Source: Antedon mediterranea (lineage: Eukaryota > Animalia > Echinodermata). Taken from it: 64,000 nt of DNA. The position numbers and the translations under genes were made by a program. Numbering within the stretch: position 1 is the first letter of the stretch; each line of letters opens with the position of its first letter. The DNA is taken from the NCBI RefSeq assembly GCF_964355755.1, contig NC_092680.1, forward strand, positions 310,001-374,000, written 5' to 3'. The notes beneath the pieces are model-generated. The model did not search any database and was not told where the DNA came from. It was given only the letters and a program-made list of their open reading frames with translations. Positions 39,296 through 63,689 of this stretch are shown piece by piece.

Positions 39296-42200
39296 TTACA
39301 TTTGGTTATTGCCGGCGCTGGCACCACTGAACATTCCAGAAGCCATACCACTTGCAGCTCCTTTAGCTGCTTCCTTGGTTGCGGTTTGAACGCCTGGGTT
39401 GGTCACGACACCTCGGGCGAACTCTTCTTGTGCTTTCTGGAAACTTGCACCGGTACTTCGGTACAAGGAGTGTACCTGTGAATGGTCATTGAAAGAAATG
39501 TTATCAAAATATACTTTATTATTTCACAAAAAATATGATACTAAAAATTTGGTTCATACATTTTTTTTCTGTTTTTTTGCTCATTTTAAAATATAAATAT
39601 TTTTCTGTTAAAAAATGTTTTGTTCATGAGAATACTGCAACAATTTAAGGTAAATTTATTAAAATATCTATTTATCTTTTGCTTACATGCATTAATAGAG
39701 AATACTATTAAATGCACAATGAATTGATACAGTTTATCAATATTAATATACAGTGATATGAATGGTATGTTTTGGTGTTTTGTTATTGGATGAAAATTAA
39801 ACATGATTATAAAAGAAAATATGCAAATAAATTATTATTATAAGATTATTGTAAGCAAATATATGTTATTCAATTATTTAAATAATTGTATATAAAATAA
39901 AATATTGATAATTATATATTACATAATATGTATATATAATGTATTATTATACATTACATAATGTTATTTATAATGTATTATTTAAAATTGTAATTCAACA
40001 GATTATAAACAAAAAAGTAAAATTATTTTAAACATTTTGTTAAATTAAGTTAGAAAATAATGAGTTAAGAAATAAGCTTGTTTTTTGCAAAGCTTTTTAT
40101 CCAAAATATTGAATTAAATTTAAAATTCCACCACCATAAGAAAATTTAAGAAAACAAATCAACATACACATACAAACAAATCAGCACGTTCATAAGTTAT
40201 TTACCCGGGTTGACTTCATGAACGAATCATCGCTAACTTTGCTGGGTAGATCAGCAACTTACCCGGGTAGATCAGCAACTTACCCGGGTAGATCAGCAAC
40301 TTACTCGGGTAGATCACCAACTTACCCGGGTAGATCAGCAACTTACCCGGGTAGATCAGCAACTTACCCAGGTAGATCAGCAACTTACCCGGGTAGATCT
40401 CCAACTTACCCGGGTAGATCTCCAACTTACCCGGGTAGATCTCCAACTTACCCGGGTAGATCATTAACTTACCCGGGTAGATAACCAACTTACCTGGGTA
40501 GATAACCAACTTACCTGGGTAGATCACAGAATTACCTAGGTAGATCTCCAACTTACCCGGGTAGATCTCCAACTTACCCGGGTAGATCACCAACTTACCC
40601 GGGTAAATAACTAAGCATGAACGTGCCCATAGTACAGAGCACACATTATTTACAATACACAATCTGTAATTACACTGTATAAACACACATACAAATTACA
40701 AATACTATCACTACAGATCTCAGACACTAAACTGTTCTTACATTAAATACTCACTTCGTTCAATTTAAAAAAAAATCTAATAACAAGCAATTGCATTTTT
40801 ATTGCGATATTATTTTTATATTTTCCTAATTATTCATTTATTTATGAATTTTGTGGCAGAAGAAAATTATATTATATTTTGAATTTTAAATTGATTTATT
40901 TTGTTGTTATTTTTATTTATTATTTAATCAATCAATTTATTAAAAATTCGCATTAATTTGAATTCATTTAAATACAAACTTGTATCAATATTTATTTTTG
41001 TTGAAATGTTTAAGTTTAATTTCAAATTTTAAATAAGAGAATTAACTATATATCATCTGTATATACCAATTTGTTTTAGGATATTTAACTAGTTGTTGGA
41101 GACTTTCACTTTACCAATGCAATCTTTTGGTCATTTCCATACCTTTTTTAGAAATAATAGATTTAATGTAGCTAGTACAGTGAACAGGATTGCAACTATC
41201 ATCATGATTAAACCAGTGGATATGCGTTGAGCGTTGGACATGTCACCATCGGTGAACACTTCAATGGACACGATCCAACCGCTAATGACATTATACAGTG
41301 ACAGTACACACAATGAGTAGAAGATGAAGGGATGGAGGTAGTGAATATATGAAAAGAAAGCAGTAACATTAATAAAAGCAAAACGAAACAAAAAAGTGTT
41401 ACTAAAATGTTGTCATGATAACATATGATTTTTCTTGCTTTAAAAGCTCTTTTAAACTAAAATGTTTGACAAAACTAATAAATGTTATTTTATGTTATAT
41501 ACAGTTAACTCTTTTGTCCACCATATACAGCAGATTCTATAAGATGATGCTAAACTGAATATTATAAATTTTGGGAAAACGTGGAACGTTTTACAATTTT
41601 TTAAGTAGTTTATATCAGCTTCTGCTTTTACAGATTTTTTCGAGAGAAAGTGTTTAAGGTGATGTCATGAATAATATTGCCACACTACTACTTTTAAAAT
41701 TTAAAAAATTAGATGTTACCATGATCAACACTACTATAATACCTTTGTGCAATATTAAGCAAACTAAAAGAACTATATACAACTGTTAGAAGTTGTTAAA
41801 TAACATATTATTGGGACTGGGTTGCGTTTATACCTTCTTGATGAATAAAAGATTTAATGTAGCCAATGCGCTGAACAGTATAGCGACTGTCATCATGATA
41901 AAACCAACTGACAGACGTGAGCCTTTGCTAGATTCACTGTCCGTTAAAACTTTGATTGTTACTATCCAGCCACTAATATACATGATAAAAATTGTAAAAA
42001 AAAAACATTAAATATATTGGGTGTTTTAATTTTAAATTAAAAAAACAAACAAACAATAATGTATAGAAAAATTCATTTGATTTTGTTATCATGATGACCA
42101 AACCTGAAAATATGAAACGTAAATATTTTGGAACATAGCGTTTCATACGTATACTTGAGCTTGTTAACATCTATTAAAGTAAAGGTTCTCAAGTAATAGC

Positions 42201-45200
42201 CGATATAGAGACATAACGCTGTAAACATGGCGGCACAACAGATTGTTTTGCTTCTAATCAAATTCATCTTTCATTAAATAACAGACAATTTATGAATGAA
42301 AGTTAACAAATTTCTGAAATATAGTCAACTTGTCAAAAAAATTAATTAACAAAGCAAAAAAAAAATTTATTTGGTTTCTGTAAATCCCATTATATTCAGT
42401 TGGCAATGTATTTAAGCTAGGCTAAAAAAATGCAAGTTTAAACAACAAGATACAGTACAACAAAGTTTAGAAAAAACCATTGTACTTTTATTTACCCGTG
42501 TCTTAAATTATTATCATTTGACCTTAATACTAAGTTTTTTAAATAAATATTTTTAAGCATTAGTAGGTCCTTTCCTTTGCTGCTTAATTTTACTAACTGT
42601 AATATGTCATAACTGGATTTATAACTGCAGTTATGACAATTTTATAACATAATTGCCTTTAATATGCGTTGTTAAAGAGCAGCACGCACGCAAAACCTGA
42701 TTAATATTTTTCAGATGATTTCAAAATTAGTAAACATTCACCTACATGTAAAGTAATTTTTATTTTATTTTTTTATTAGCAAAAGAAAATAAGAGTGTTT
42801 TATTAAATACCTTCCTAATATAAAATAGTTTTAATATGGATAATGCAGTGAATAAAATGGCTACACACATCATCCACAAACCAACAAACGTTTGTCCACC
42901 TGATGAACTATTTGTCAACACATTCAGAGCTACAAACCAGCCACTGTCAAAGTTCAAAAACATTTTTTTAATAAAAATAACAAAATACTAAATTAATATA
43001 AAACTAAATGGAGGAATGACATTTGTAAAACCTAATTAAATCATTATTATTATTATTCTACTTCTTGAGGGCATGGTTCATAGATTATACAATTTATGGA
43101 GAGGGGTAGTCAATGCATTTTCTACTTTTTGAGTTATATCTCGCTCTCTGAGAGAGGCTACTGTTGGTTTATCCAGGTAAGCTAGACACAAAATAGTCAA
43201 TATTATTGGTTGAAAGATCATCACATGACCAAGTGTAGATTTATTAATTTCAAAGTTGGGCGCGTTGGACTAAATAGTGAATTTAGACTAGAATAGGAAA
43301 AGTATATTTATATAATAACAGTTCATCTAGTGATAAGAAAATGACCGATAAAAAATGAAAGCCAAAAAAATAAATAAATTATGGTAATACAGTTAAAGTC
43401 CAGAAAAATAAAAGATGATTGAAGTCAGCAAACTTCACTATGTTAACCTATATTTTCTTTGTGTAATTGTCTTATTTATGTATTGTCCTGTCATTGTCAT
43501 GTTTATATTGTCATTGTTCGTTTTATATGTATAAGTTTATTGCCTTAAAAACGCATTTTGAATTTTTCTCTCAATTTTTTGCATTATTTTATCTATTTAT
43601 CTCACCTTATATTCTTATGCAATTTGGAAATATATTGAAATGAACTATTTGGTATGTACACAGTTAAATTATATGAAACTCTGTGCTAGACGATGATTTA
43701 TTTTGACCTATAGATGATTTATTTTGTAAGAGGATTTATAAAAAAAATGTACTGAACATTAACGGATCGAATGAATGTTTAATACTCGCAGAAAATGCTT
43801 TATGAAATGTGTATGTTCAATTGTAAAAAGGAAAAAAATGAATATTTTATGGTGACTTAACAAAGGGCAACATCGACAGATAATGGTATGCATGGTTGCA
43901 CAATTAGAAGAAAATGCTTGTGTATATGTTGATAATTAGCTGGTGTTTGCTGTATTTGGAACAAAAGCTGACACTATGATGATAAACACTGATGGTTTAT
44001 TAAGATGACTTAGATCACCTTTTTGAGATACATAGCATCCAGTGTAGCCAGCAAGGACCAAACACCACCCATAAATAACATCAAACCGCCAACAACTTTT
44101 GCTCCAACACCGTCTTCTTTTACTACACGAATACCATTGATAAACCCGCTGCCAGAGTTAGAATATTGTATCAAAATATATTTGCATGATTCAATAAACA
44201 TAAAGGTAAAAGCACTATTGAGCGTTCAATAGTGCGTACTATTGCAAGCCATGTGACCAACAATAATCTAATTAAATGTCAGGAATTTATATAGGTGTTA
44301 TATAAAAGGTAATGTTGTATAAAAATATAAAAGATATTTGCATGATTCAAGATAACACCATCAATGCGATAAACTACTTGTTTTTTACCAGAACCAGTGT
44401 CACTGAGACTTAATTAAGTCTCTGGTGAAATTCATAAGAGATTTTGTAGGTACTAAATAATAATTGTTTGACACAAGAAAATGATGATACTGTAGGACCA
44501 ACAATTTGAAATGTTTGACAATAAAAAAAATAAATATAAAAAGGTCTAAATATTTGAGAGAAAATAATCAATGAAAAAATCAGAAATTTAGTAAGAATAC
44601 TTATGAGGAGCTACTGTGTGGAAAAAATGTAGTAAAATATATTTGACTCTGTAATAAAGTAAAAATATTAGGATACTTTAAATGCATAAGATATTTCAAA
44701 TACATATACCGTATTTATTTGAATAAACCCCCCGGGTTTCATTGGCTATTTGAAGGGGGAGTTTATTGCAAACGATGTTCTATGAAGGGCATTTTTTCGA
44801 GGAAAGTGTTTTTTTCAAATAAATACAGTATATAAACATTAACATTAACAACATGAAATAAAGATGTCATCACATATTTTATCAACAAACTAGACATTGC
44901 TGAATGAAATGTATCAATGTTGATATGGAACAACGCTGTGAATTCTCTGGAGTTGTATCAAAGAACTTATAACACAAGAATCTCCTGTTCTTCAATTTGC
45001 ATTCAAAACACAGTATCGGAAGTACAGGGTTAAAAGGTCAAACTGGGCGACGCCATTTCACAGCATGGAGCAGCGCCCCCTCCAAACTAGGAAGTTAATT
45101 ACTCTACCCCCCTAGAGTATTAGCAGATCCCCTCTATGATTTTGACTTTCTAATTTGATGCGGGCGCCCTACTCCTCAGTCAATTACTCTATCCCCCCTA

Positions 45201-48200
45201 GAGCATTAGCAGATCCCCTCTATGATTTTGACTTTCTAATTTGATGCGGGCGCCCTACTCCATGGCTCACAATGGCGGCACCCATAGCTCTATTCTATCC
45301 CACAATGCCTTTCGAAATTGTTACGCGCTTCGGACGAACAGGAGATTCTTGTGTTATAAGTTCTTTGGTTGTATGTAGATATTGCTTTATAATATTTAAA
45401 TAGTAAGCCTGTTGATTGGTCAAATATAAGCAATAAATAAACAAATCACTAAAACTTGTCATAAAATGATTTGACACATTACTATGTATCAGAAGTAAAA
45501 TGAGATACGTACCACGTGCCCCAACCATCTAATCCAATGGCCTGTACAACATTAGCACAAAATTGGCAGAAAAATACAAAGAAAAACATAAAGAAATTGA
45601 ACGAACTGTCACTCCTATAGAAAAAAAAAGACAAAATAAACATTAGAAATAAAAACCAACCATTAATAATAAATATATTAATATTAATAATACATACATA
45701 TATTACATTAATTAAATATTTTTCTATAACTTATCAAACTAGCATGAAACTTCTATCCAACTAAATTTAAAGTAAATATTTTTAAAAGTTGAAAGCATGG
45801 TAATTTGTTTTTTTTTAAATGTTCTTAGGCTAAATGTGGTAAAATTATGTAGAAATTTAAGTCTAATTCCGATTTTAAAACATGAATAAGTTTTCTCTAC
45901 ATTGGAATTAAAGTCTTAATATTGATTAAGATTCAAGTAATTGTATTGGTACACTTTAAAATGGAAATTCGGTCTGCTTTGCATAATTAAGACAATAAAA
46001 CAACAAAGAAAAATACATCAAATTGCAAAAGGCAAAGTTCATTTGTTGAACTTATGTCCTTTTTTAAGTTTAAAAAAAATATAATTTGTATAGCGCCTTT
46101 CCAAATTGATCAAGGTGCTTCACATTCTAATGCATAGGAAACAAGCAAGTTTTAAGGCCTTTCTTAAATAGATCTATCGATTTTAGTTCCCTTAATTCTA
46201 TTGACAGAGGGTTCCAGAAACTTGCTCTAAATTTGGAGAAAGCAATGTCCCCTGAGACACGCCTTTCAAGGTGGTCCTCTAACCTGGTTGGATCATTTTC
46301 CGACCTGAGACCACGCCTCCCACAATTATAGAGGTTAATCCTAAAGATAACCTGGTGCTCGGTTCAATTATTAAATCCAATAACACCGCCAACTTTTTTC
46401 TTTTTATTTTCTTAAGAAGATCATATGCATTTCAAAGTATAGTATTTTGATTCACTAATTTATGATGCAAGCTAATTTTAATCTTAAATTTTTAAAAGTA
46501 TTATTTTTATTTTATGAGAAAAATATTAATTTGGATGAAAATGATGAAATGATGCTTTACCTGAAGGCCTTGTACATAGGTCGATACCAACAAACGAATG
46601 AGCATGGACTGAACGCTACAAACCAGACTATTGCAAGACCAAATGTTGTCGCTTTACCTCCATCTGTTTTTGAAAATAGGTACGCCATGGCGCCGATCAA
46701 ATTCAAGAATAGGACTAATACATAAACTGAAATGAAATTCACGATATGAAATGCATTTAAAAATGGTATTATAAGCAAATGTGAATGGTATCACAATTAT
46801 GACGCGAAAAACTATGATAAAAAATGGTAGATGGCTTGATGAAGAAAGAAACAAACCATGACGTGTCGCTGCCTGCTCACCTAAAAGCTTTATACAAAGG
46901 CCTAAACCAACACACATAAGAACATGGATTAAAAAGTACACAGAAAAATACAGCCAGGCCAAAACATCGTCCACTATGACTGACTCCTGTACTGATGTAA
47001 CCAATAGATATCAGCACATTTATAAATAACAACACACCATAACCTGAAAGACGTCAATCATTTTATAATATACATACTTTATTTATTTATTAAGGTGAAA
47101 TCTACAAATTTTTCCCAACAGCCAGGTGCGGATCCAAGTGGAGCCCAGTCGGCCAGAGCCCCCCTAAATTTCACAAATTGTAATGCAAAGATAGGAAATC
47201 AAGCTCAGCCCTTCATTTCACCATTTTAGGCCCTGGGCCCCTCCTATTTCAAAATTCTGGATCCACCACTGACAGCAGAAATGAATCCTGCTAGAGAAGA
47301 GCAATACTAGAAATTCTAAAAATTAAATTAGTACCTGATTCAGAACGGCAGCACAAACAAACAATGAAAACAATGGCAAACGTGTTTGGGCTTTCTTTCA
47401 ATTAAATTTGCTAGACTGGATAGCTACCTAATAATTATTCATGAGGCTTTTTAATTTGCTTGTGGAATTCCTAAACACGTTCAAGTATAGGCTGTTTTCT
47501 AAACATGTTTTTGCCGTTGGGAATAATTTGTAGATCATGTCTAAATGAGAAAATGTTAAAGAATTTATTTACGTACCATTAGTGGCTAATTATTATTATA
47601 ACACACCTGATCACATGATATTCAATAAATATTCTATTGAACTCTAAATTACGTCAGAGTGCAATGTAACTACTTATATGTGACTACTGCAATTTTGTTT
47701 TGTGCATTCATTTTTGATATACCACATATGCAACATAAGGTTGGTGTTGACTGTAGTAGTGTTGTCGATGATATCGGAGGCCTGTATTTTCGAATAAGTA
47801 AATATATAATTCACGCAATTCATGAAATTATTTGTACCATTGCACTCATAAACATTTATTATTATGAGCTAGACCATATTGAATGTTTTAAACATTAAAT
47901 GTAACTTACACATCCACAAATAATATCCAGTTTTCACTGTACGCTGAAAGTCCAAAGGAATGTCTACTGAAAAATCTTGATAAAAGCAAGGCTGGATGTG
48001 TAACCATGACGGCAAAGGAGGCCAGTTGTTTTGTCGTGCTAAAAAATAAAGTATTTAATTAAGTATTATTATGAATGAAGGATGAGGTCTACAAGGAGTC
48101 AAAGAAAGATGTTCCTCCTCAATAACAACTCTTTTAAAGTAGTTGATTCTTTCATGTACACAAATGTTTAGAGATAAGGCAAAGATTTATTAATATCAAG

Positions 48201-51200
48201 AAATAATGCATAACAGGCCAGATGAGCAATGTGTGTCCAGTGGCAATATTCAACATTCAAGCGAAACATTTCTCCTAAATAAAAACGTATAAATAAACCT
48301 TGAATAATACAAAAAGAGATTTAGACTCAAACGTAAAACTAATACCATAAGATTAGCAGAGAATGTTAAATTCTCCTATCACGCTAAATGAGACTGTATA
48401 GTTTTAATGGTTCTAACTTACTATTATATTGAGCATTATTAATTTGTTGTTCTCTTCTTTGTAGTTCGGCTGCTTTGCGTTCTAATTCTTCTTGTCGTCG
48501 TATTAAGTCTTCATGTCCAGCTTGCACTGCCTATACAGTAGGGCAAACAAATAAAACACAAATTACATGGGTCAGACCAGGTCATATTTAGTGGGATGCC
48601 AAAGGTAAATAAAACACAAATTACATGGGTGAGACCAGGTCATACTTAGTGGGATGCCAAAGGTAAATAATCTATTCCTTTTTGTCCTATTCTTTACATG
48701 TACATTCTCAGCCAGGGAATGTGTATTAAGCTCTGCCTACACTATCAAACTAGTTTGACAAAAAAGTGTGATGTGCCCAAATATAGTAGTGATATGATAT
48801 CATCATGTCATATATGGGTACATCACATTTTGTTGTCACATAAATTTTGACTGTAAACAAAGCTTTACATTACAGATATTATTTGACACGCAAGAAATTA
48901 GAGTGAACAATATAGAAGCAACTTACTGGTTGTGCAGCTGATTGTGTGTAAGCAGGTGGTGGTCCTGTGGGTGGTAACACTGCAGGTTGGGGTTCAGACT
49001 TTGTAGGAGGTGCTGTCTGTCTATATGGTTGCTGTACATTAAAAAACAAAAAAGGAAAGTAAATCATTTAAATTATCTCATCATCTTATATTGTAGCTAG
49101 GGAAGTCAATGAAACATGCTTAAGCACAATGAAACATGCTTAAGCACAATGAAACATGCTTAAGCACAATGAAACATGCTTAAGCACAATGACTTCAATG
49201 GAAGGGCAACCTGCCTCCTTTGCTATGTAAATTATCTTTACTTTACTAATTTGCTGATTCACGAAGCAATCAAGACACAATTATTAAATAAACACATTGG
49301 TTTTCTTGAATCGTAACATTTCTTTAAAGATATGGATTCTTATGTCTTATACTGTACAGTAGGATAAATTTAACAAATGACCTCTCCTTTTAAATCTTAT
49401 TAAATGTAGATTACAAATATTAATACACAAATATTTTTTTATATGTTTTTTTTGGCTTTATTTGTGACGCAGAGCCTTATGTGTAGTGTTGTGAAGTCAA
49501 AAACAAAAATGCATAGGGTTTTAGCATTTGTACAATATAAGGAATACAAAATTATATACAGTACTGTACAGTATTTTTTAATTTTTTTTATTTTATTTTG
49601 ATATTTTGTATATGTTTTTCATATTTTTCTAATAATAATAATAATAATATGTGCACATACAGATTGTTTATTTGAATCTTCAAAAGGGTTATATTCTTCA
49701 AGACCTCTATGGCTGTTACTAGTTGCTTGTTGAACTGACTGATCCTGCAAGACAAATATAATCAGCAAGTTTAAAAATAATGCTTCCTGTTTCCTTACAC
49801 AAGTGTAGTGTACATTATGTTGAAGAGGATCCAGGAATTATGAATGAAGGATGTGGTAAAAACAATATATTTGTGCGAGAGGCACCACCTTCCCCAACCC
49901 CTGCTGGATCCGTTCCTGTGGATTGATGTTCATCTAGACCACCATGCTTATTTGTGCGAGGGGCACCACCTTCCCCAACCTTTGCTGGATCCGTTCCTGT
50001 TGATTGATGTTCATCTAGACCAGCATGCTTATTTGTGCAGTACACAGTACATAGCATTTTTTTACTTTTTATTCATGTATACAAAAAATTAATTTAAATA
50101 CAATGTATATTTGGCATCTGAAAAAACTGTAAATTGCACTTTAAACTGTAAAGACGACAGACTGACTGTAATGCATAGATACAGGATAAGAAACATTATA
50201 TACATCTGCATCAGATATGATTCAGAGTGCTTAAATTGTAAGGGTTATCCGTCGCCGTTATTACGTTGCTGACGACGGATGAAAGCTGTTCATCGGCTTT
50301 TATCAAACCTCTTGGGATGTAAACATAATGAAGATAGTTTGCCGGAAAATGAATTAGCTACTTTTTTACAAATGTCATGCTAGTATTATATTTTAACACA
50401 TTGAGGCATGTTAAACATAACTGTATACAATTATTGTGTAAATACTGTACTGTGTACTACAGTACAGTTGGATTAGAAGATGTTGTGACATCTTTAGTGC
50501 ATAGGAAAATCTACCCAATGAGTTCAATAAAACAAGAACCAAAAAGCTCACAAATTTTGTATAATAAATCGTAAAAAAAATTTTAAATTTTGATTTTTTT
50601 ATTCTTTCTTTAGCCTCTCTGGATTATTAAGTGTTTCTTCAAATAAGCATGCGTTTATATTATATATATTGATAAGAAAGCACATACCATTGAACAGCCA
50701 GTACAGTGAAATCCACAATTAGAATGCTATAAGCCTTTTAGATAATACTTAACAGATACATATGCAACACACGGTCCTGCATCTATACTATTAAAAGTGT
50801 CACTAATGTAAAGAACGAATCCTGAATCATTGACGCTTTTCCAAAATACTGTTTAGCCTAATAATCTCATTGGCTTTTAATTCTGAACTTTACCTCCTAT
50901 TTGATTAACTCCCACACCATATGGCTGTTGTATGGCTATGATAACAGCCGGAAAACCTATTCAATTTTGTAACAGAAAAACAAATACTTCATGTGTATAG
51001 TAAACATATAGCATCAAGTTATCACCCAAAAGTTTGATTTTGAGTTAATATGAGTGTGACTGTTTTTTGTATTGGTTTGGTGATAGAGGAGCACTTGTGA
51101 GTCCATGGAGACTTTACAACTAAGGTATGAGTAAATATCAAATTGCAATATTCCATTGTGAATGATGGGTACATGTACTCATAGAATGCCATAGTGAACA

Positions 51201-54200
51201 TTATCTGTGGTTATTAGAAATTATATGTTCATTAAATACAGTTGTAGCTAGTAGGTACAATTATATTTTATTATTTCATTTAGCAAACAATTTGCAAAGT
51301 TTTTAAAAGTCAAATAGTTTTAGTTTCTTTACCTCAATCAACAATTTTCAGTTGTTGTCTAACAACTTAGTCTGTTTGGTCAAAGCAGCATGACTAGAGA
51401 ACAACTTCCAAATGTTCATGCTTTATTTTGCCCAATCTGGTCTTATTGACAATTGTTCTGAAGGGTCTCATTTCTGATCTTGTATCCTACTTAAATCTGT
51501 TGTTCAATACATGCCTATACTGTACATAAATAGTCAGCTTTCGGGACAGTAAGTAAGCGAAAGGTGCTTTATACAAAAAGATTAAACTGTGCATGCGTAT
51601 AAGTCCATACTCCGTTCCGTTCATTATTGCGACTGTATTTGGTCAATTTAACATTCGTCGTTCCGTGGTCTAGGCCTACAGTAGATATACCATCGTCGCT
51701 TGTGCAAAACGCATTTAATAACATGACAAAAAACACTTTATACAAGTGTCATGCTCTGCTCTACTGTCCCGATGCGAAAGCTGACTATTTACTTCTTGGT
51801 TTTTTTGGGTACATGTCTGCTATTTATTTTTATTTTTCTTTCTCTACATTTTATATACTGTATATATATATTGCAGGCATTAATAACTAAAAGATAAACA
51901 TTGGTTGCAGATAATAGGTAATCCCATAATTACCATTGTCTGCTGGACCACAAATACAAACATATTTACTACAGTAAACACTCAATCCTTCTTTAGCTTG
52001 CACAAAGCAATGAATCTAAATATGAGAAATTGCACAGCTTGCATGCCACCTACTAATAATCAATGTTGCTTTGAATAGACAATTGGACTTGAATATACAG
52101 GTACGATTCAGCCATAAATTAATGTTCATAAACAATGGCAATATTTATCATATTAAAAAAGTCTACAATTTTCAGTATTGTACAACATATAAAACTGTAA
52201 GTTTATAAATAATACAAATAGTGAGATGACTACGTACAATACTAGCATTTAATGACATTTTATGTTATATCCATGGTGGCCTTTACAATACTAGCATTTA
52301 ATGACATTTTATGTTATATCCATGGTGGCCTTTACAAATGGCCATCCAACATAGAACACACACTACACAAGAACTACACTTAACAGATACATTTAGATGT
52401 AGTAAGTATATGCTAATAAATTAGATTTCTTGTAAGAAGATATTAAATAAACCAGATCTGAATAAACGCAAAGTATGTTTAATGTTTTTCTATAATAATA
52501 CGTTTTATTAACTGTAGGTCATTGTACAGAGTTGAATTCAAAAACAGCTGAAAAATGCATACTTTACCTGTACTACAAAAATAATTATGTAATAAAATCA
52601 ATAAAAATTCATAATTTTTACCTTTTCTGGATTAAAATCCATTTTTGTTTATTAAATGATAATGAAAATACCAGTAAAATGTAGGCTTAGGATCAAAGCA
52701 GAGTCTATTACATAGCCGTACAGTGTAGTCAGTAATAATTATTGATATTGTTATTATCGCAGTAGATAGAAGTCACATGGTAATATGCAAATTACTGTCA
52801 TGTGACATTCAACCTTCATCAGTTGTCACAGAATTTTAAATATTGAAAAAACTGCATTATTTTATTATAATTTAATATTTATTATTTATTAAAAGTATTT
52901 AAAAATTGTATTATAATCATTACAGAGTATAAATAACCAGTTTTATGCAAAATAATAATCAATATTGTTGTTAATTAGTTATGAGTAGTAGAGCAACGTT
53001 TTGTATTGTGTAAGTTTGTAACCTACCAGTATAATGTAAAAAAATGGAAATTAAATTTCATTATGATGCACAGCCGGTGTAAATACAGTACAAGCAAATA
53101 ATACCCAGTAACACAAAACCAGTGCATACAATGTAAAGAAGAGCATAGCTAACAACCAACTATTACACAATTCAGATAATAATATACTGATTGACTGGGT
53201 GTAAAGAAGAGCATAGCTAACAACCAACTATTACACAATTCAGTTAATAATATACTGATTGACTGGGTGTAAAGAAGAGCATAGCTAACAACCAACTATT
53301 ACACAATTCAGTTAATAATATACTGATTGGGTGTACAGTTGTTGTATATATATTTTCTTATTTTACTGTTTAAATAATGAACATGTTTAATACAGAAAGA
53401 ATTCTTGACTTTGCTAACAGTAGTGGTGGCGTGTCGTCATCACAGAATGGACAATACGAGAAGTTAAACCAAAATGGTGGTGATGAGGAGCCAATCAACA
53501 AGTCGCCAACAAGGATGCAATGGCTACAAACAAAGGTTGGAAACATCTCAACTAAAGTAAGGAATGTACCATCGAGAATTGATGCTATCATGCACAAGGT
53601 AATTGATTTCATCATCTAAATCATTATGGCAATTTAGTACCATATATCCTCGGGTACAATCCCACTTCGGGTTTAATCCTACCTCCTACTTTATGTCTGA
53701 TTTCCCAAACAGGCATATCCCGGGTATAATCCCAGTATTGTTTTTGGTCTGGATGTAGCCACTTCAGATAAGTTTTTCTTATAATTTTTTCCTGAACCAG
53801 GGTTTCCCCGGGCATAGTAAGTCCCACACCCCAAAGTCGGCCCAATTTTGGGTGATGAGATTATATCAGAGGATATACACGGTATTTAATAATCTAACTT
53901 TGTGTAATAGGCTTTACTTAACTGTACAGTAGGCCTATCCTGTAGTACAGATTATATTCTGACAGGCTAACATCAGCGGCATAATGGCTATAAGCGCTCA
54001 CTGGCTAAACACAGGGGCCAAGACAATGAGTGGCCCTAACTTTGGAGGGCTCCTTAGAAGTGCTAAACACAGGGCCTCTTTTGTACCAGCAATTCCTTGA
54101 TCTAGGCAAAATTGTCTAGCGCCTAACTGTGACGGTATAATTTAAATTACAGTAGGACAATCCTTGTTACTGATCTATATATATAAATTTATGTAAGGTA

Positions 54201-57200: not shown

Positions 57201-59307
57201 TGCAACTTCTGCTTTATTCAATTAAATCATTCATTTACTTCCTGGTAATAGTTTTATCTAACTAAAATAATCACTGTCTAATTCAATGAATAACCACCTA
57301 AAAGTGTAGGAGGTGGTTAGAAACTACATGAGATTTTAACTTTAAAATTGGATTTTATTTTACCCTCAGCTAGCAGAACACATTAACTCCTTCCTTATTA
57401 ATATTATACACACTCATAATAAAGACTACCAGAGGAATACGCTAAAGGCAAATTTACACAGACGAGTGGTAACGGTATCCATAGCTAGTCCCACGTACAA
57501 TCTGTATCTGTCCTGAGCAAAACCACCCGTCCGCTTCATGTTGTGTGTAAATGGTCATAACATAGATTCTATATTTTTACTATTGTTACGGCTCGTATGT
57601 GTAAATTGGTCATTCTTCATTATACTATCAATTACATACTCAGAAATGATATTTCATCCAAACATCTTACTGTTACAGAAAGAAAATACTGCAAATTTTC
57701 CTACAAGCTTTTCTAGTTGCTCGAGTAGTTCCAAATTACAGCCAATGCAAAGCGTTGGTGATGACAACACCACATGGAAAATCACCTCCGTCCAATAGTA
57801 AACAAGTAACTACTGTACAGTACCTGCCTCAACCCAAATGTTTTAAATTATTTTTTCCGTTATCAAATCTGGCTTATTAAGTATTTTATTAAAGGCAGTT
57901 TATACAGTATTTTTGTTCTATAAACTGCATTATTTTATTTGGTTTTGCGTTAACCTCATGCGAAGAGAGAAGATCAGCTACTGTATTATTTTATTTGGTT
58001 TTGCGTTAACCTCATGCGAAGAGAGAAGATCAGCTACTGTATTATTTTATTTGGTTTTGCGTTAACCTCATGCGAAGAGAGAAGATCAGCTACTGTATTA
58101 TTTTATTTGGTTTTGCGTTAACCTCATGCGAAGAGAAAAGATCAGCTACTGTATTATTTTATTTGGTTTTGCGTTAACCTCATGCGAAGAGAAAAGATCA
58201 GCTACTGTATTATTTTATTTGGTTTTGCGTTAACCTCATGCGAAGAGAAAAGATCAGCTACTGTATTATTTTATTTGGTTTTGCGTTAACCTCATGCGAA
58301 GAGAAAAGATCAGCTACTGTATTATTTTATTTGGTTTTGCGTTAACCTCATGCGAAGAGAAAAGATCAGCTACTGTATTATTATTTCCACCGAAAATATC
58401 TGTGTTTACCATTATTTTTAAAGGGAAATTGATATTATAATGTTAACATTATACCATTGAGGTACTTTAAAACAAATTTTTTTGTCGTCAACAGCTGGTA
58501 CAAATGCACAAAATGGACACATATCGAAGAATGATATCACTACAGTAGCTTAAATTCTTATTGTTAGATGTTAACAAATCAGTTAAATGCTAAAAAAGGT
58601 TTTATAAAAGGATACTTACGAAAGATATTAATGAGAAAAAAACACAATAGCACACTGTTTTAAATACATTTTTTATTTTTTCAGATTTACAATTTTTAAC
58701 ATTTAGAAAAAAATATTGATGACAGAAATAACCAGTCCTGGGCATACATATGTACACATTATTCAATAAAATAATTTTAATACATAACAGAACATAATAT
58801 ATTATTTATATTCTATGCAGCATGCAATTCAAAACATTAAACAATCATTCAAAAGGGTTTCGAGGAGCCACTAACTGACTAAAGAGAGCTAAACCGATTA
58901 TGCAATATTGGTAATCAAACTAATTTTTAAGTTGAGAAACATAGTTTTGTATTGTATTTTTTGCTACACAATTTTCAAAATGTGTAGCAATAAGGTTGTT
59001 TTGTATAGCTCTTTTCTATGCTACACTGGTGAAAATGTTCCCTGACTGAACTGTCATAAACAATCGTAATACAGTAACCACTGTTTATCAATCAGGATGC
59101 CGTTCATCACAGAAACACGTATGTGAGTGAGTGGGTAGGCATGCCTGCGAACCTAACCTAGCTAGCTAGCTACACACAGACTCAGTCAGTACATACAGTA
59201 GGCCTAGGAAATTGGCATGATTAAACCATCAAATAAAACCAATACTTTACCTGAAACGGATTAGATTCTTGTGGGTCAGCAAATGGATTACTATCAAAGT
59301 CAGCCAT
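39296..59307 (-). CDS. SCAMP1: Secretory carrier-associated membrane protein (SCAMP1-like, NPF-containing); exons 59307-59251, 49744-49661, 49031-48927, 48530-48422, 48038-47910, [47043-46881 or 46726-46561], 45614-45513, [44148-44019 or 42943-42811 or 41972-41834 or 41281-41143], 39475-39296
   Basis: [96 protein letters not shown]; all junctions GT/AG and phase-consistent. Confidence 0.95.
40235..40606. repeat. 21-bp satellite, about 18 copies, palindromic TACCCGGGTA core
   Basis: Unit aacttacccgggtagatcagc; explains ORFs 40216..40686 and 40218..40484. Confidence 0.95.
41143..41281 (-). CDS. SCAMP1: SCAMP alternative exon 8d (139 nt): [46 protein letters not shown]
   Basis: Acceptor cattag, donor AAG/gtatgg, phase 2 to 0, open frame. 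Confidence 0.88.
41834..41972 (-). CDS. SCAMP1: SCAMP alternative exon 8c (139 nt): [46 protein letters not shown]
   Basis: Acceptor tattag, donor AAG/gtataa, phase 2 to 0; absent from the supplied ORF track. Confidence 0.87.
42811..42943 (-). CDS. SCAMP1: SCAMP alternative exon 8b (133 nt): [44 protein letters not shown]
   Basis: Acceptor ttgacag, donor AAG/gtattt, phase 2 to 0. Confidence 0.87.
44019..44148 (-). CDS. SCAMP1: SCAMP alternative exon 8a (130 nt): [43 protein letters not shown]
   Basis: Acceptor ctggcag, donor AAG/gtgatc, phase 2 to 0. Confidence 0.87.
44707..44830. mobile_element. Tc1/mariner (pogo-like) MITE
   Basis: taccgtatttatttgaa / ttcaaataaatacagta with TA ends; relatives near 6450-6573 and 8560-8640. 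Confidence 0.7.
44959..45367. mobile_element. 409-bp non-autonomous TIR element, P/Galileo-like
   Basis: Perfect 32-bp TIR caaagaacttataacacaagaatctcctgttc; exact 7-bp TSD GTTGTAT; CA..TG ends; internal tandem duplication. Confidence 0.85.
46083..46345 (-). mobile_element. L2/CR1-type LINE 3' end fragment
   Basis: Minus frame [35 protein letters not shown] followed by an aggcgctatacaaat tail. Confidence 0.75.
46561..46726 (-). CDS. SCAMP1: SCAMP alternative exon 6b (166 nt): [55 protein letters not shown]
   Basis: Acceptor catttcag, donor AG/gtaaag, phase 1 to 2. Confidence 0.92.
46881..47043 (-). CDS. SCAMP1: SCAMP alternative exon 6a (163 nt): [54 protein letters not shown]
   Basis: Acceptor tctttcag, donor AG/gtgagc, phase 1 to 2; the supplied ORF track shows the wrong frame. 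Confidence 0.9.
47123..47271. mobile_element. hAT-like MITE with 5-bp TSD
   Basis: TIR caggtgcggatcca / tggatccaccactg; ACAGC on both flanks. Confidence 0.75.
49107..49192. repeat. 20-bp repeat x4
   Basis: Unit caatgaaacatgcttaagca. Confidence 0.9.
49868..50039. repeat. ~81-bp direct duplication containing a MITE-like end
   Basis: tatttgtgcgag..ctggatccgttcctg..catgc occurs twice. Confidence 0.8.
53132..53330. repeat. 68-bp tandem repeat x3
   Basis: Unit begins tgtaaagaagagcatagctaacaacc. Confidence 0.92.
53396..53598 (+). CDS. Candidate plus-strand exon antisense within SCAMP intron 1, possibly an upstream AP3B exon
   Basis: Acceptor tttaatacag, donor AAG/gtaatt, open coding-like frame ..[43 protein letters not shown]; in frame with the AP3B acceptor at 59778. 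Confidence 0.5.
53638..53884. mobile_element. pogo/Tigger-like MITE
   Basis: taccatatatcctcgggtacaatc / gattatatcagaggatatacacggta. Confidence 0.65.
54469..56184. mobile_element. 1.7-kb non-autonomous TIR element with 5-bp TSD (hAT-like)
   Basis: Perfect 15-bp TIR ctacgctcgcgctaa / ttagcgcgagcgtag; CTACC on both flanks; subterminal ttcgccaa..tggcgaa palindromes; CpG-rich interior. Confidence 0.82.
56650..56912. repeat. 80-bp tandem repeat x3
   Basis: acagtacaataacaaggag at 56671, 56751, 56831. Confidence 0.9.
57924..58382. repeat. 56-bp minisatellite x8
   Basis: Unit actgtattattttatttggttttgcgttaacctcatgcgaagag(a/g)aagatcagct. Confidence 0.95.
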
Positions 59308-59789: not shown

Positions 59790-62700
59790 ATGACGTCCAG
59801 TAGTAGTATGGTGTCTTACGCCAACGAACGTCCACATCACTTGGTGGGCGGTAACAGTAGTGGCGGTGGTGGTGGTGGAGGTTCGACAGGTGATGCGGAT
59901 GAGGCTAGCGATCCAGCTCGTGGAGGCTTCTTTGCAGCAGATTATAAAAAGTATAATAATATCACCATGATCGATTGTATTTTGTTACCTTGGATATTTA
60001 ATTTTATGTTGATTAATTTTCATAATTTATATTAATAATACTAAACTAAATAATTAATATTTTGTTATTAATAAATAAAAGATCAGTCAGAATAAAGAAT
60101 GAGAACGCATCATTAATTATTCATCATGTTTCGTCCCAATTTAGGCCAATAACAAATTCTTGTTTATGGGGTTGGGTGCGTGGGTTGGGATGCATTGTCA
60201 TAATAGGAAATGTAAAGCCATCAGCAACCACCTCAAACTTGATATGTATATGTGTAATTAACCGTAAAAATAAGGCATTAGAGACGCATGATAATGATTG
60301 CAATATTTATTTTTTTTAGCCAGTTTTTTTTTTCTATAAAAAGATCTCAATTAATATCAAATTTAGTAATTCTATTTTATTGTAAGATGTTTTCTTATAT
60401 CACATATTTTTTGTTTTTGTTCAGTAATGTTGGTTTTGGACCAATAAAACAAAATAAATAACAATATTATGTTTTTCTAATTGTTAGTTTAATTGTTATT
60501 TTTAGACATGAAGATCTTAAGTCAATGCTTGATAGTAACAAAGATGGGTTAAAGCTGGAAGCAATGAAACGTATCATTGGAGTAAGTACTAACAAAACGT
60601 TAGTTATACTGCATGTTTGCTTTCATCATTCCTCATATTATTTTTTTATTGAGTAATAATAATTAATTTGAACATACTTTTGTAACAGTGGCACACTTCG
60701 ATATGAAGGTTCATTGTACAATCAAAACCACATTACAATGCTAACTATAAAATGTACAACAATAATAATAAAAATGTAATAATAATAATGAAAACCAAAC
60801 AGTACCCCCCCCCCCCCCGATATTTATCGATATTTACCCACCCCCTCCCTCCCAGTATTGTTTGAGATAGAGTGGTCAATTAGGTCAAAAGTCATGTATG
60901 AATGGCTTTACACTCTACCAGCTATTCAAGTATCAACTTATTCCACCATATCAAAATAATAATATAATAATGTATAATAACAAAGGTTGGTGAGGGTGAC
61001 CATCACTACTACTGTAGGATTTTATCAGAAAATATTGAGCCATTTTTATTACATAATAATATTGTTTAAAGGTTTGCATAGTGAATAAACACTATCAATG
61101 AAGTATAAGAAATAGTTAAATTGTATTCTTTACATTAAAATAACAAATTGACAAGTCCTTTTCAAATGATACAGACACTCAGCATTGTGTCATCAGTATT
61201 GTATGCTAAAACACCCTAACTCTATCAGTGTGAACAGGGCTTTAATGCTATTATACTAATTGAATAGTAGGGCCTTTACCCTTAAGCTAGAAGATTATGT
61301 GACAAAAAAGTGTGATGTGCCCATATGGTAGTGATGTGCCCAAGTTTGTTTAGTGATATGACACTATCATGTCCATATATGGGCATATAATCTTTTTGTC
61401 AAATGATCTTGATAGTGTAGACAGAGCTTAATACCAATTGAAGAGTATATTGTTAGATATAATCAATATCTTTCAGATAATGTACAGAGCTATTCAATTA
61501 CATGGTTGATTGAATCTGTGCAGATGTAGGTTTACATACACTGAGTTGCACTGTGAATAGAATTAAAACTACTTTGATTTAATTTATAATAATACTGTAT
61601 TGGATTGTTCCACAGTGTAATAGTAGCAGTAACCTCATTAGCATAAACTGCCAGGTTAATTAGCATAATCCATAGCTTTAATTTAACACTAAACTTGCTT
61701 TTTGCCTTTAATTATAATGATAACATTAATCTATATTATTTTTTGCACTGAAGCTCTGCAATATTTTGTGACTGTTTTATTTGTCATTTTGATTTAGCTT
61801 TTTGCTTATTTTATTTGTATTTTCATTGAGATCCAGCCACTGATATATTAACATTAAATCATAACATCAATTGTTGGGTTTTTTTCAGATGATTGCTAAA
61901 GGCAAAGATGCATCTGATTTATTCGCTGCAGTTGTAAAAAATGTTGTCTCTAAAAATATTGAGGTAAAAGTAACCATAATAATAAATTTGTGTTTTTCAT
62001 ACTGTAAAGGCAAAAATGTTCGCACCTCCGTCATTTTCCTTATGCGTATGTAGAATGTAAAAATAATTTGATCTTTATTTAATCTTTTTTCAGATTAAAA
62101 AGTTGGTTTATGTTTATCTTGTACGTTATGCTGAAGAACAGCAGGACCTTGCTCTGCTATCAATTAGTACATTCCAAAAAGCACTCAAGGTAATTCGATC
62201 ATTTTTCTACCAAATATAAAGTTAAAACCTCCTGATAAGCATGTTTTCTTGTGACAATTATCCTTAGCAATAGGTCTAAAATAGAATAATAATGAAAATT
62301 AATGTAAGTGAGAAAATAACCTGCAATTGCTCACAGGTGTGGACGACAATCAGGATAATAACTATAAAATTTTAGGCGCTATCGTGCGGACAAACAAAGA
62401 AAGTACTTGTTTGTAATATTAATTGCTATCCACAATACAATACATTATGATTTGAAATTACCAAAATCATACAGAAACTAAATAATTATAACTGTATACT
62501 TTCTGTGTATATACAGGATCCAAACCAGTTTATTCGAGCATCAGCTCTACGAGTTTTGTCTTCGATTCGAGTAACCATCATCATTCCAATCATGATGCTT
62601 GCGTTAAAAGACAGCGTGACAGACATGTCGCCATATGTGAGAAAGACGGCCGCGCATGCCATCCCGAAAATGTACAGCCTGGATCCAGAACAAAGAGATC

Positions 62701-63689
62701 AACTCATAGAAGTTATTGAAAAACTACTCTCAGATAAAACAACAGTAAGCATTTTTTCTTAATTTTTTATTTACTATACAAATAAATAATACTAAACTTG
62801 ATCTGCATATATATTTCAAGAACTCATTTATTTTTGTAGTGATTATGTTTTATTTTAAAAAAATATATAATGTTGATATGTATAATCAAATAAATACCCC
62901 CTAGAACAAATATAAAACAATTAATATCAAGAAGTTCAATTTTTGGAATTAATGAGGATCGTAGTGTTAAATCAATTAATCATAAATATTTCACCTCTCT
63001 GACACAATTGTTTACTTTTATCAGTTGGTAGCTGGAAGTGTTGTGATGGCTTTTGAAGAGGTTTGTCCTGAAAGAATCGACCTAGTTCACAAGAATTTTC
63101 GCAAACTCTGCAATTTGTTGATCGATGTGGAAGAGTGGGGACAGATTTCAATCATCAATATGTTGACACGTTATGCCCGCACCCAATTTCTAGATCCAAA
63201 CAAAGCTGTAAGTATGGGTTTTTTTTATTAATAATTAGTAAACACATTTTTTAGCTAATTTTCTTTTTTATGATGAAAATTTTTTTTTTTTTTTTTATTA
63301 AACAAATTTGTACAAATATCATAGTAGTTTTGCAGAAAGATGAAATAAGCAAGTTACCTCACTACTGAGCTACCATGTCACTACTACATGTTTGATCCAA
63401 AACATGACTGGGGTAATAATGTGCAGCGCATTGAGAGCTTGGTTATATACGCTATATAAGAATGGACTATTATTATTATTATTAGTAATACATTTTTCCT
63501 AACTCCAACCTCTTTAAGGATTACATTCAAGAAGAAAATGAAAAATCATTTTATGGATCTGAAGATGATGAAAAAAAGGAGGATGAAGGCGAAGAAGAAG
63601 GAGAAAAGAAAATACCATATGTAATGGATGCTGATCATAGACTGTTGCTAAGGAGTGCCAAGCCATTGCTACAAAGCAGAAACTCAGCT
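59790..63689 (+). CDS. AP3B: AP-3 complex subunit beta, 5' part; exons 59790-59950, 60506-60581, 61889-61963, 62094-62189, 62517-62744, 63025-63207, 63519-63689; continues beyond the window
   Basis: [107 protein letters not shown]; phases consistent. Confidence 0.96.

Follow-up and report, generated by a model that had tools for sequence, protein, structure and literature searches.

Alternative exon arrays in a crinoid SCAMP gene are predicted to exchange membrane helices

Introduction

Homologous mutually exclusive exons, also described as tandem duplicated exon substitutions, are homologous exons of equal phase of which one enters each message, and the accessible parts of two studies present them as old and as enriched in membrane proteins (PMC9741552; PMC4494069). 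In arthropod Dscam1, several such arrays are combined within one gene by mutually exclusive splicing, as excerpts of earlier work describe (PMC1397879, PMC8042237). Here we examine a comparable arrangement in a SCAMP gene (PF04144) of the crinoid Antedon mediterranea, contained in a window of 64,000 nucleotides (nt) of genomic DNA (NCBI RefSeq assembly GCF_964355755.1, contig NC_092680.1, positions 310,001 to 374,000), in which an array of two alternative copies of exon 6 and an array of four copies of exon 8 flank a single exon 7. Dscam1 produces tens of thousands of forms that differ in immunoglobulin domains, whereas the Antedon gene would produce eight, differing in transmembrane (TM) helices under purifying selection, and no docking-selector signal was found in the parts of its introns searched.

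SCAMPs have four TM helices and an E peptide with a role of its own (PMC8721997, in part), as well as short loops and an N-terminal helix through which they dimerise (bioRxiv 10.1101/2025.07.03.662988, in part); the same excerpts report that they set the surface level of channels and aquaporins. The Antedon protein resembles the family in its domain, four helices and E peptide, and also in N-terminal NPF repeats, a feature of long SCAMPs. Vertebrates possess five SCAMP genes (PMC8721997), whereas in Antedon the alternatives are exons inside one gene.

Our preferred reading, to which we assign a probability of roughly 0.6, is that one SCAMP gene uses one exon copy per array, that the resulting helix swaps are likely to change membrane partners or compartments, and that the switch between exon 8a and exons 8b to 8d is old. 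Part of this is already on record, with isoforms partly present in RefSeq as unnamed X-forms; the exon-6 array and the RNA joins are added here. The interest of the SCAMP arrays lies in their age and repeated duplication more than in the count of eight forms, and they do not represent a new mechanism. Full-text searches, with subscription papers, supplements and exon databases outside their scope, found no paper on SCAMP exon arrays, in keeping with a preliminary description of this DNA whose author knew of none. PMC9741552, PMC4494069 and PMC5703972 do not contain the word "scamp" in their main text, and the "SCAMP" of PMC8797185 is a sleep-analysis script rather than the protein.

Gene structure and exon arrays

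The complete gene lies in the window on the minus strand, from 59307 to its stop codon at 39296, and its product contains the PF04144 domain over residues 121-305 (220 bits against a curated cut-off of 27). The best 120 matches to the gene include one Antedon cluster only, which suggests a single SCAMP gene in this species. Exon 5 (47910..48038), which is constant and carries the start of TM1, is followed by exon 6a (46881..47043, 163 nt), whose segment matches PF04144 by itself (E 1.7e-11), and exon 6b (46561..46726, 166 nt), which encodes the same segment. Exon 7 (45513..45614, 102 nt), constant in Antedon and encoding TM3, precedes exons 8a (44019..44148, 130 nt), 8b (42811..42943, 133 nt), 8c (41834..41972, 139 nt) and 8d (41143..41281, 139 nt). 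The exon-8 copies fall into two classes by their third residue, which is Trp in 8b to 8d and aliphatic or Phe in the class of 8a.

The preliminary description had placed two arrays around exon 7, and their coordinates and lengths proved exact to the base. As it had also proposed, all six copies are open, bounded by AG and GT and phase-matched inside their own array, and skipping a whole array or including two copies of one breaks the frame, such that a full open reading frame results from only 8 of the 64 inclusion patterns, those with one copy per array. Adjacent homologous copies of like length and the same phase, with canonical splice sites, are the features by which exon clusters of the known kind are recognised.

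Open stretches bounded by AG and GT are frequent by chance (83 within 39296-48038), and the evidence for the copies therefore rests on homology. A tblastn search of the whole 64 kb returned exactly these six copies (E 1e-33 to 0.03, the next match standing at 0.21) and no additional exon copy in the window. Third codon positions diverge more than second positions in each of the seven copy pairs (Fisher p 0.0002-0.05), and for 8c against 8d, where a check of the ratio of nonsynonymous to synonymous rates (dN/dS) had been suggested beforehand, that ratio is about 0.14. Judged by these codon comparisons, all six copies are shown to be under purifying selection. An assembly artefact is excluded by read contigs that hold 6a and 6b together, and 8b and 8c together, with their introns, and by run X1, which is distinct from the window in its single-nucleotide polymorphisms (SNPs) and also has 6a and 8a with flanking intron. 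Runs X2, X3 and X5 come from a single sample, possibly the one from which the window derives.

Transcript evidence

Run X1, which we guess to be an RNA run containing DNA, was used solely for spliced joins in its contigs. Five GT-AG joins fall at predicted borders, namely 5-6b, 6b-7, 7-8b, 7-8c and 7-8d; a sixth joint is a 416-nt intronic deletion. The depths of the contigs with 8b, 8c and 8d (12, 26 and 31, respectively) are not expression levels, and the exon-8 joins cover the 5' side, toward exon 7, exon 9 having lain outside the stretch examined; one 8d contig continues 24 letters past 8d. The spliced contigs of this run contain no copy-to-copy join. The three joined isoforms correspond without a single difference to RefSeq Antedon mediterranea isoforms X1 (8d), X2 (8c) and X3 (8b), and RefSeq isoform X4 also uses 8d, so that each of the four carries one exon-8 copy, all with 6b. 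For 8b, 8c and 8d, one copy of exon 8 enters each message, as the preliminary description had anticipated in calling the exons mutually exclusive, and for exon 6 the same is likely.

The expectation of eight isoforms was borne out for three, 6b with 8b, 8c or 8d, because 6a and 8a were seen neither in run X1 nor in RefSeq. Their absence counts against our reading: no join to 6a or 8a occurs in the run X1 contigs or in RefSeq isoforms X1-X4, the latter being automatic models. Exons 6a and 8a could accordingly be recently silenced relics of a gene that uses 6b with 8b to 8d alone and makes three isoforms, and the two Anneissia isoforms likewise carry neither. We regard this as improbable, as both exons retain an open frame and intact splice sites, 8a shares 54% identity with the exon that an Amphiura model uses, and 6a shares 56% identity with an exon annotated in a sea urchin. 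The SNPs of run X1 comprise two synonymous and no missense changes in 8a and none in 6a, too few for significance, and the absence of 6a and 8a from its contigs is no evidence of silence since contigs drop rare forms. On the reading that both arrays are in use, 6a and 8a are likely restricted to particular tissues or stages.

Splicing control

Every double inclusion creates a stop codon 97-375 nt before the last junction, and skipping of exon 6 creates one 230-239 nt before it. Messages with stops placed in this way would be removed under the usual rule of nonsense-mediated decay (NMD). The frame rule of the preliminary description needs a correction on this point. If exon 8 is skipped altogether, the stop falls in the last exon, out of reach of the usual rule, and models of exon-8-skipped forms exist for Strongylocentrotus and Glandiceps (P0127, P0145); both facts add to the case against strict use of one copy per array.

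How a single copy is chosen was approached from several sides. In a search limited to one genome and to parts of the introns, the best common duplex for a docking/selector pairing was no better than in shuffled sequence in all four layouts (7-12 of 12 shuffles as low), and the longest inverted repeats were a mobile-element-like pair and AT-rich matches. Steric exclusion between splice sites operates only below a threshold of intron size, and it is unlikely here because the introns between copies measure 154-1075 nt. The acceptors of the copies have a pyrimidine content of 0.50-0.65, against 0.85 for exon 7 and 0.65 for exon 5; weak acceptor sites are therefore not established, as the copies lie near exon 5 though below exon 7. 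The stop positions, the introns of this size and the missing docking signal together point to regulated splice-site choice, with NMD of double inclusions as a filter, as the probable means of enforcement.

Predicted structure of the exchanged segments

An AlphaFold model of the protein (predicted local distance difference test, pLDDT, 80-96 over the core) has four helices joined by short loops, with the E peptide placed between TM2 and TM3, and the hydropathy profile has four peaks, in agreement with the earlier view of a SCAMP with four TM helices and short loops. In this model, exon 6 does carry the first lumenal loop, as had been stated, but this loop of 7 residues is flanked by further segments of the same exon, the second half of TM1 on one side and the whole of TM2 with most of the E peptide on the other; exon 8 encodes a short lumenal helix, a second loop of up to 10 residues, and TM4. 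Between 6a and 6b, identity is 5/17 in TM1, 0/7 in loop 1, 10/21 in TM2 and 8/10 in the E peptide. Loop 2 retains 0-4 of 10 residues between exon-8 copies, and 8a shares 5-8 of the 22 TM4 residues with 8b to 8d, such that up to 17 of the 22 differ. The preliminary description had located the divergence in the loops. These are indeed the most variable part between copies, and also between orthologues (Antedon and Anneissia agree at 4/7 and 5/12 loop positions but at 15/17, 20/21 and 19/22 helix positions), yet most of the differences between copies sit in TM1, TM2 and TM4. As modelled, the arrays exchange helices and retain the E peptide.

These figures bear on the suggestion, made in the preliminary description, that the gene builds a Dscam-style repertoire of vesicle-lumen or cell-surface faces. 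In its full form, this reading holds that the arrays exist to vary both loops for recognition and that each cell makes its choice at random. Comparison of the copies finds the least conservation in the loops (loop 1, 0/7; loop 2, 0-4/10), 8b alone among the exon-8 copies adds an N-x-S sequon to loop 2, and one sample makes use of three exon-8 copies at once. However, the loops are 7-10 residues long and equally variable between orthologues, most substitutions fall in helices, there are only 8 forms, 8c and 8d evolve at the low dN/dS given above, and no docking-selector pairing exceeds shuffles in the parts of the introns searched. The passages of literature examined attribute no binding role to SCAMP loops. 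We consider such a repertoire very unlikely, slightly more so than the silencing of 6a and 8a, and prefer the explanation by helix exchange.

Neither sequence searches nor Foldseek found a solved homologue. The matches returned by VIA-align (best Z 12.2; synaptophysin 11.0) were discarded, as they are four-helix bundles of a generic kind whose scores fall short of what is meaningful for helical bundles. The isoforms are natural helix-swap variants of a trafficking protein that has no solved relative in these searches.

Distribution in other animals

For comparison, named proteins were assigned to 60 species labels from their printed names (some lancelet names being incomplete) and cut at the exon borders of the window; the set is without any anthozoan, sponge or arthropod. 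Among the 22 other non-vertebrate bilaterian labels with at least two proteins, 17 keep exon 5 unchanged and differ by a swap limited to exon 6, 7 or 8, Arion is ambiguous and four show no swap. Exon-8 swaps occur in 12 labels (sea urchins, Acanthaster, Apostichopus, both acorn worms, lancelets, a chiton and an octopus), exon-6 swaps in 10 (echinoderms, and lancelets with three forms) and exon-7 swaps in three (acorn worms and Ostrea). All four combinations of a two-by-two system are annotated in Lytechinus variegatus, Apostichopus and Glandiceps, and five of six in Branchiostoma floridae, while the Nucella gene model P0123 contains two exon-8 copies in series, one of each class and in the same order as in the window. 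Swaps at the same borders are thus already in databases, in the automatically modelled RefSeq isoform sets of Strongylocentrotus, Lytechinus, Acanthaster, Apostichopus, Branchiostoma, Glandiceps, Saccoglossus, Liolophura, Octopus and Ostrea that were compared with Antedon X1-X4; three of these four are identical to isoforms of the window, and 6a and 8a are not among them. By comparison of sequences, such arrays are common to other echinoderms, lancelets, acorn worms and molluscs and are not a crinoid novelty. The largest exon-8 set in this comparison is that of Antedon with four copies, the other species showing at most two.

Duplicated exons were found in none of 80 metagenome contig loci. 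A single non-Trp exon 8 is present in eight genomic contigs whose introns fall at these borders, and in five of the eight both flanking introns are shorter than 100 nt. In metagenome contigs L046 (7001-9799) and L064, an intron-poor SCAMP has its exon-7 region broken by a long insert or a rearrangement. The Hydra and Hydractinia "isoforms" were rejected as exon swaps because they diverge throughout the gene body downstream of the first exon, which is all that forms P0270, P0337, P0338, P0344 and P0357 have in common; this suggests that tandem gene bodies joined to one first exon are a third way to multiply SCAMP forms.

A Cys just before TM2 is present in 6a, and sea stars and sea urchins have it in one of their exon-6 forms or in both; its position is occupied by Thr or Val in 6b and the other sea-star forms. 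Echinoderm exon 6 may possibly be divided into two classes by this residue.

Origin of the exon copies

The two exon-8 classes were compared with the defining Trp column removed. Echinoderm and lancelet exons classify 26 mollusc exons (10 against 16) with an area under the curve (AUC) of 1.0, mollusc exons classify 43 others (12 against 31) with an AUC of 0.895, and the order of classes inside a species is correct in nine of nine pairs. One TM4 position is Gly in 10/10 mollusc and 8/9 deuterostome non-Trp exons but Ala in 12/16 mollusc and 16/22 deuterostome Trp exons, and four residues further on, Gly or Ala replaces Thr or Ser in the non-Trp class. Exon-8 trees were built after removal of ten near-duplicate species labels. 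Under LG+G4, 21 of 22 non-Trp exons fall on one branch, joined by three sea-star Trp exons (support 91/89); under a mixture model, 35 of 41 bilaterian Trp exons fall on one branch (88/85) with the non-Trp exons outside. Both trees group 8b to 8d with an Anneissia exon and place 8a far off, and in both the crinoid, lancelet and most mollusc exons are split by class and not by species.

Trp is present in all 119 vertebrate-named proteins checked and in all 30 Hydra-like proteins, six of which are named medusozoans, while two tardigrade proteins are non-Trp. For exon 6, a tree that leaves out four labels and retains only nine of the molluscs gives the lancelet trio its own branch (94/98), and a crinoid-only origin of 6a and 6b is borderline (p 0.06), so that an early echinoderm duplication of exon 6 is likely on phylogenetic grounds.

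Several features of these data speak against a single old origin. The tandem layout in other species is deduced from proteins. The exon-8 trees draw on only 39 columns, and the two models root differently. Approximately unbiased (AU) tests reject no parallel origin, whether crinoid-only (p 0.30), lancelet-only (0.44) or echinoderm-only (0.37), and a single class-8a clade is likewise not rejected (p 0.42). Sea-star and sea-urchin Trp exons shift between trees, the two acorn-worm variants have scores typical of the 8a class despite their Trp, and one sea-cucumber exon without Trp is unstable in its placement.

The same working system could therefore have acquired its exon-8 pair in parallel in molluscs, echinoderms and lancelets, the resemblance within each class arising because the fold allows no more than two good solutions. 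Besides the lineage-limited trees that the AU tests do not reject, this possibility gains from exons 6 and 7 of the same gene having been duplicated in separate lineages, as the lancelet branch illustrates, and from the convergence of most human and fly events in orthologous genes reported in the accessible part of PMC9741552. Set against it, the class signal persists across phyla without its defining column and in both trees, and the class order is common to Nucella, which alone would have a one-in-two chance. We judge parallel acquisition unlikely, though a more serious contender than either alternative discussed above, and from the sequences we would favour a single bilaterian origin of the 8a versus 8b-d pair over parallel origins by about two to one.

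Following the preferred reading, 8a and 8b to 8d would go back to one duplication before the split of protostomes and deuterostomes, and 8b to 8d would be a later crinoid expansion. Echinoderms and lancelets would each have duplicated exon 6 on their own, acorn worms and oysters would have duplicated exon 7, and vertebrates would have kept the Trp class only and diversified by gene duplication. A broader proposal, which we advance tentatively and at somewhat less than even odds, is that the common ancestor of protostomes and deuterostomes already switched between two types of TM4, that the switch survives in molluscs, echinoderms and lancelets, that it gave way to Trp-only genes in vertebrates and non-Trp-only genes in several compact animal genomes, and that exons 6-8 are a hotspot of duplication.

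The human-centred catalogue of such events lists 21 with invertebrate orthologues (PMC9741552, in part), and because it is human-centred it has no place for events that vertebrates have lost. Few of the splice switches in that catalogue predate the divergence of protostomes and deuterostomes, and SCAMP is a candidate for such an old switch lost in vertebrates.

Functional implications

The exchange of exon copies could alter SCAMP activity in a few ways. First, the copies would swap whole helices of a four-helix bundle, and a change of TM4 or of TM1-TM2 would shift the choice of partner or compartment while the NPF region, the N-terminal helix and the E peptide are kept; the parts of SCAMP related to fusion would remain untouched. 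The swap would thus be likely to alter membrane partners or compartments rather than to provide a surface-recognition code. Second, the 8a class, whose TM4 in Antedon has Gly on the conserved face, lacks the lumenal Trp and presents small residues at positions i and i+4 of that face, a change that would be expected to repack the bundle or its interface with a partner. Finally, splicing would supply what five paralogues supply in vertebrates, and analogous cases of splicing versus duplication are given in the accessible part of PMC4494069.

If this is true, invertebrates would assemble cell-type-specific SCAMPs one helix at a time where vertebrates rely on five genes, and the non-Trp class would represent a conformation of SCAMP, or a set of partners, not yet encountered in the cell biology of vertebrates. 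Isoforms distinct in TM4 alone, or in TM1-TM2 alone, offer a direct probe of the roles of SCAMP helices and of cargo choice, and three neighbouring exons duplicated repeatedly in separate lineages allow a clean test of how splicing trades off against gene duplication.

Other features of the region

The remaining exons of the gene, all on the minus strand, are the first coding exon (59251..59307), which has two NPF motifs and matches the start of protein P0001, exon 2 with the third NPF (49661..49744), exon 3 (48927..49031), exon 4 with the N-terminal helix (48422..48530) and the coding part of exon 9, which encodes the C-tail up to the stop (39296..39475). An alternative first exon, with a coding part of seven codons and no NPF (52622..52642), is used in RefSeq isoform X4 (P0004) and reduces the NPF count from the three of P0001 to one; the NPF N-terminus is thus not constant, contrary to the preliminary description. 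A similar start is present in Anneissia isoform X1.

Three introns contain repeats or open stretches. In the last intron, 40244-40605 is a 21-nt tandem repeat of 17.2 copies with 92% matches. In intron 1, 53374-53860 is open on both strands (81 amino acids on the plus strand, 78 on the minus strand) and is perhaps a mobile-element remnant or a piece of a nested gene. Between exons 7 and 8a, 44959-45367 is an element with 35-nt inverted ends of 97% identity and high copy number in read contigs; it is missing from run X1, as the 416-nt skip, and is a polymorphic insertion resembling a miniature inverted-repeat transposable element.

Upstream of SCAMP and head-to-head with it, a beta-adaptin gene on the plus strand has an exon at 62517-62744 (Adaptin_N, E 5.6e-21) and continues onward. 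Human SCAMP1 and AP3B1 are likewise head-to-head, which would make SCAMP and adaptin an old gene pair.

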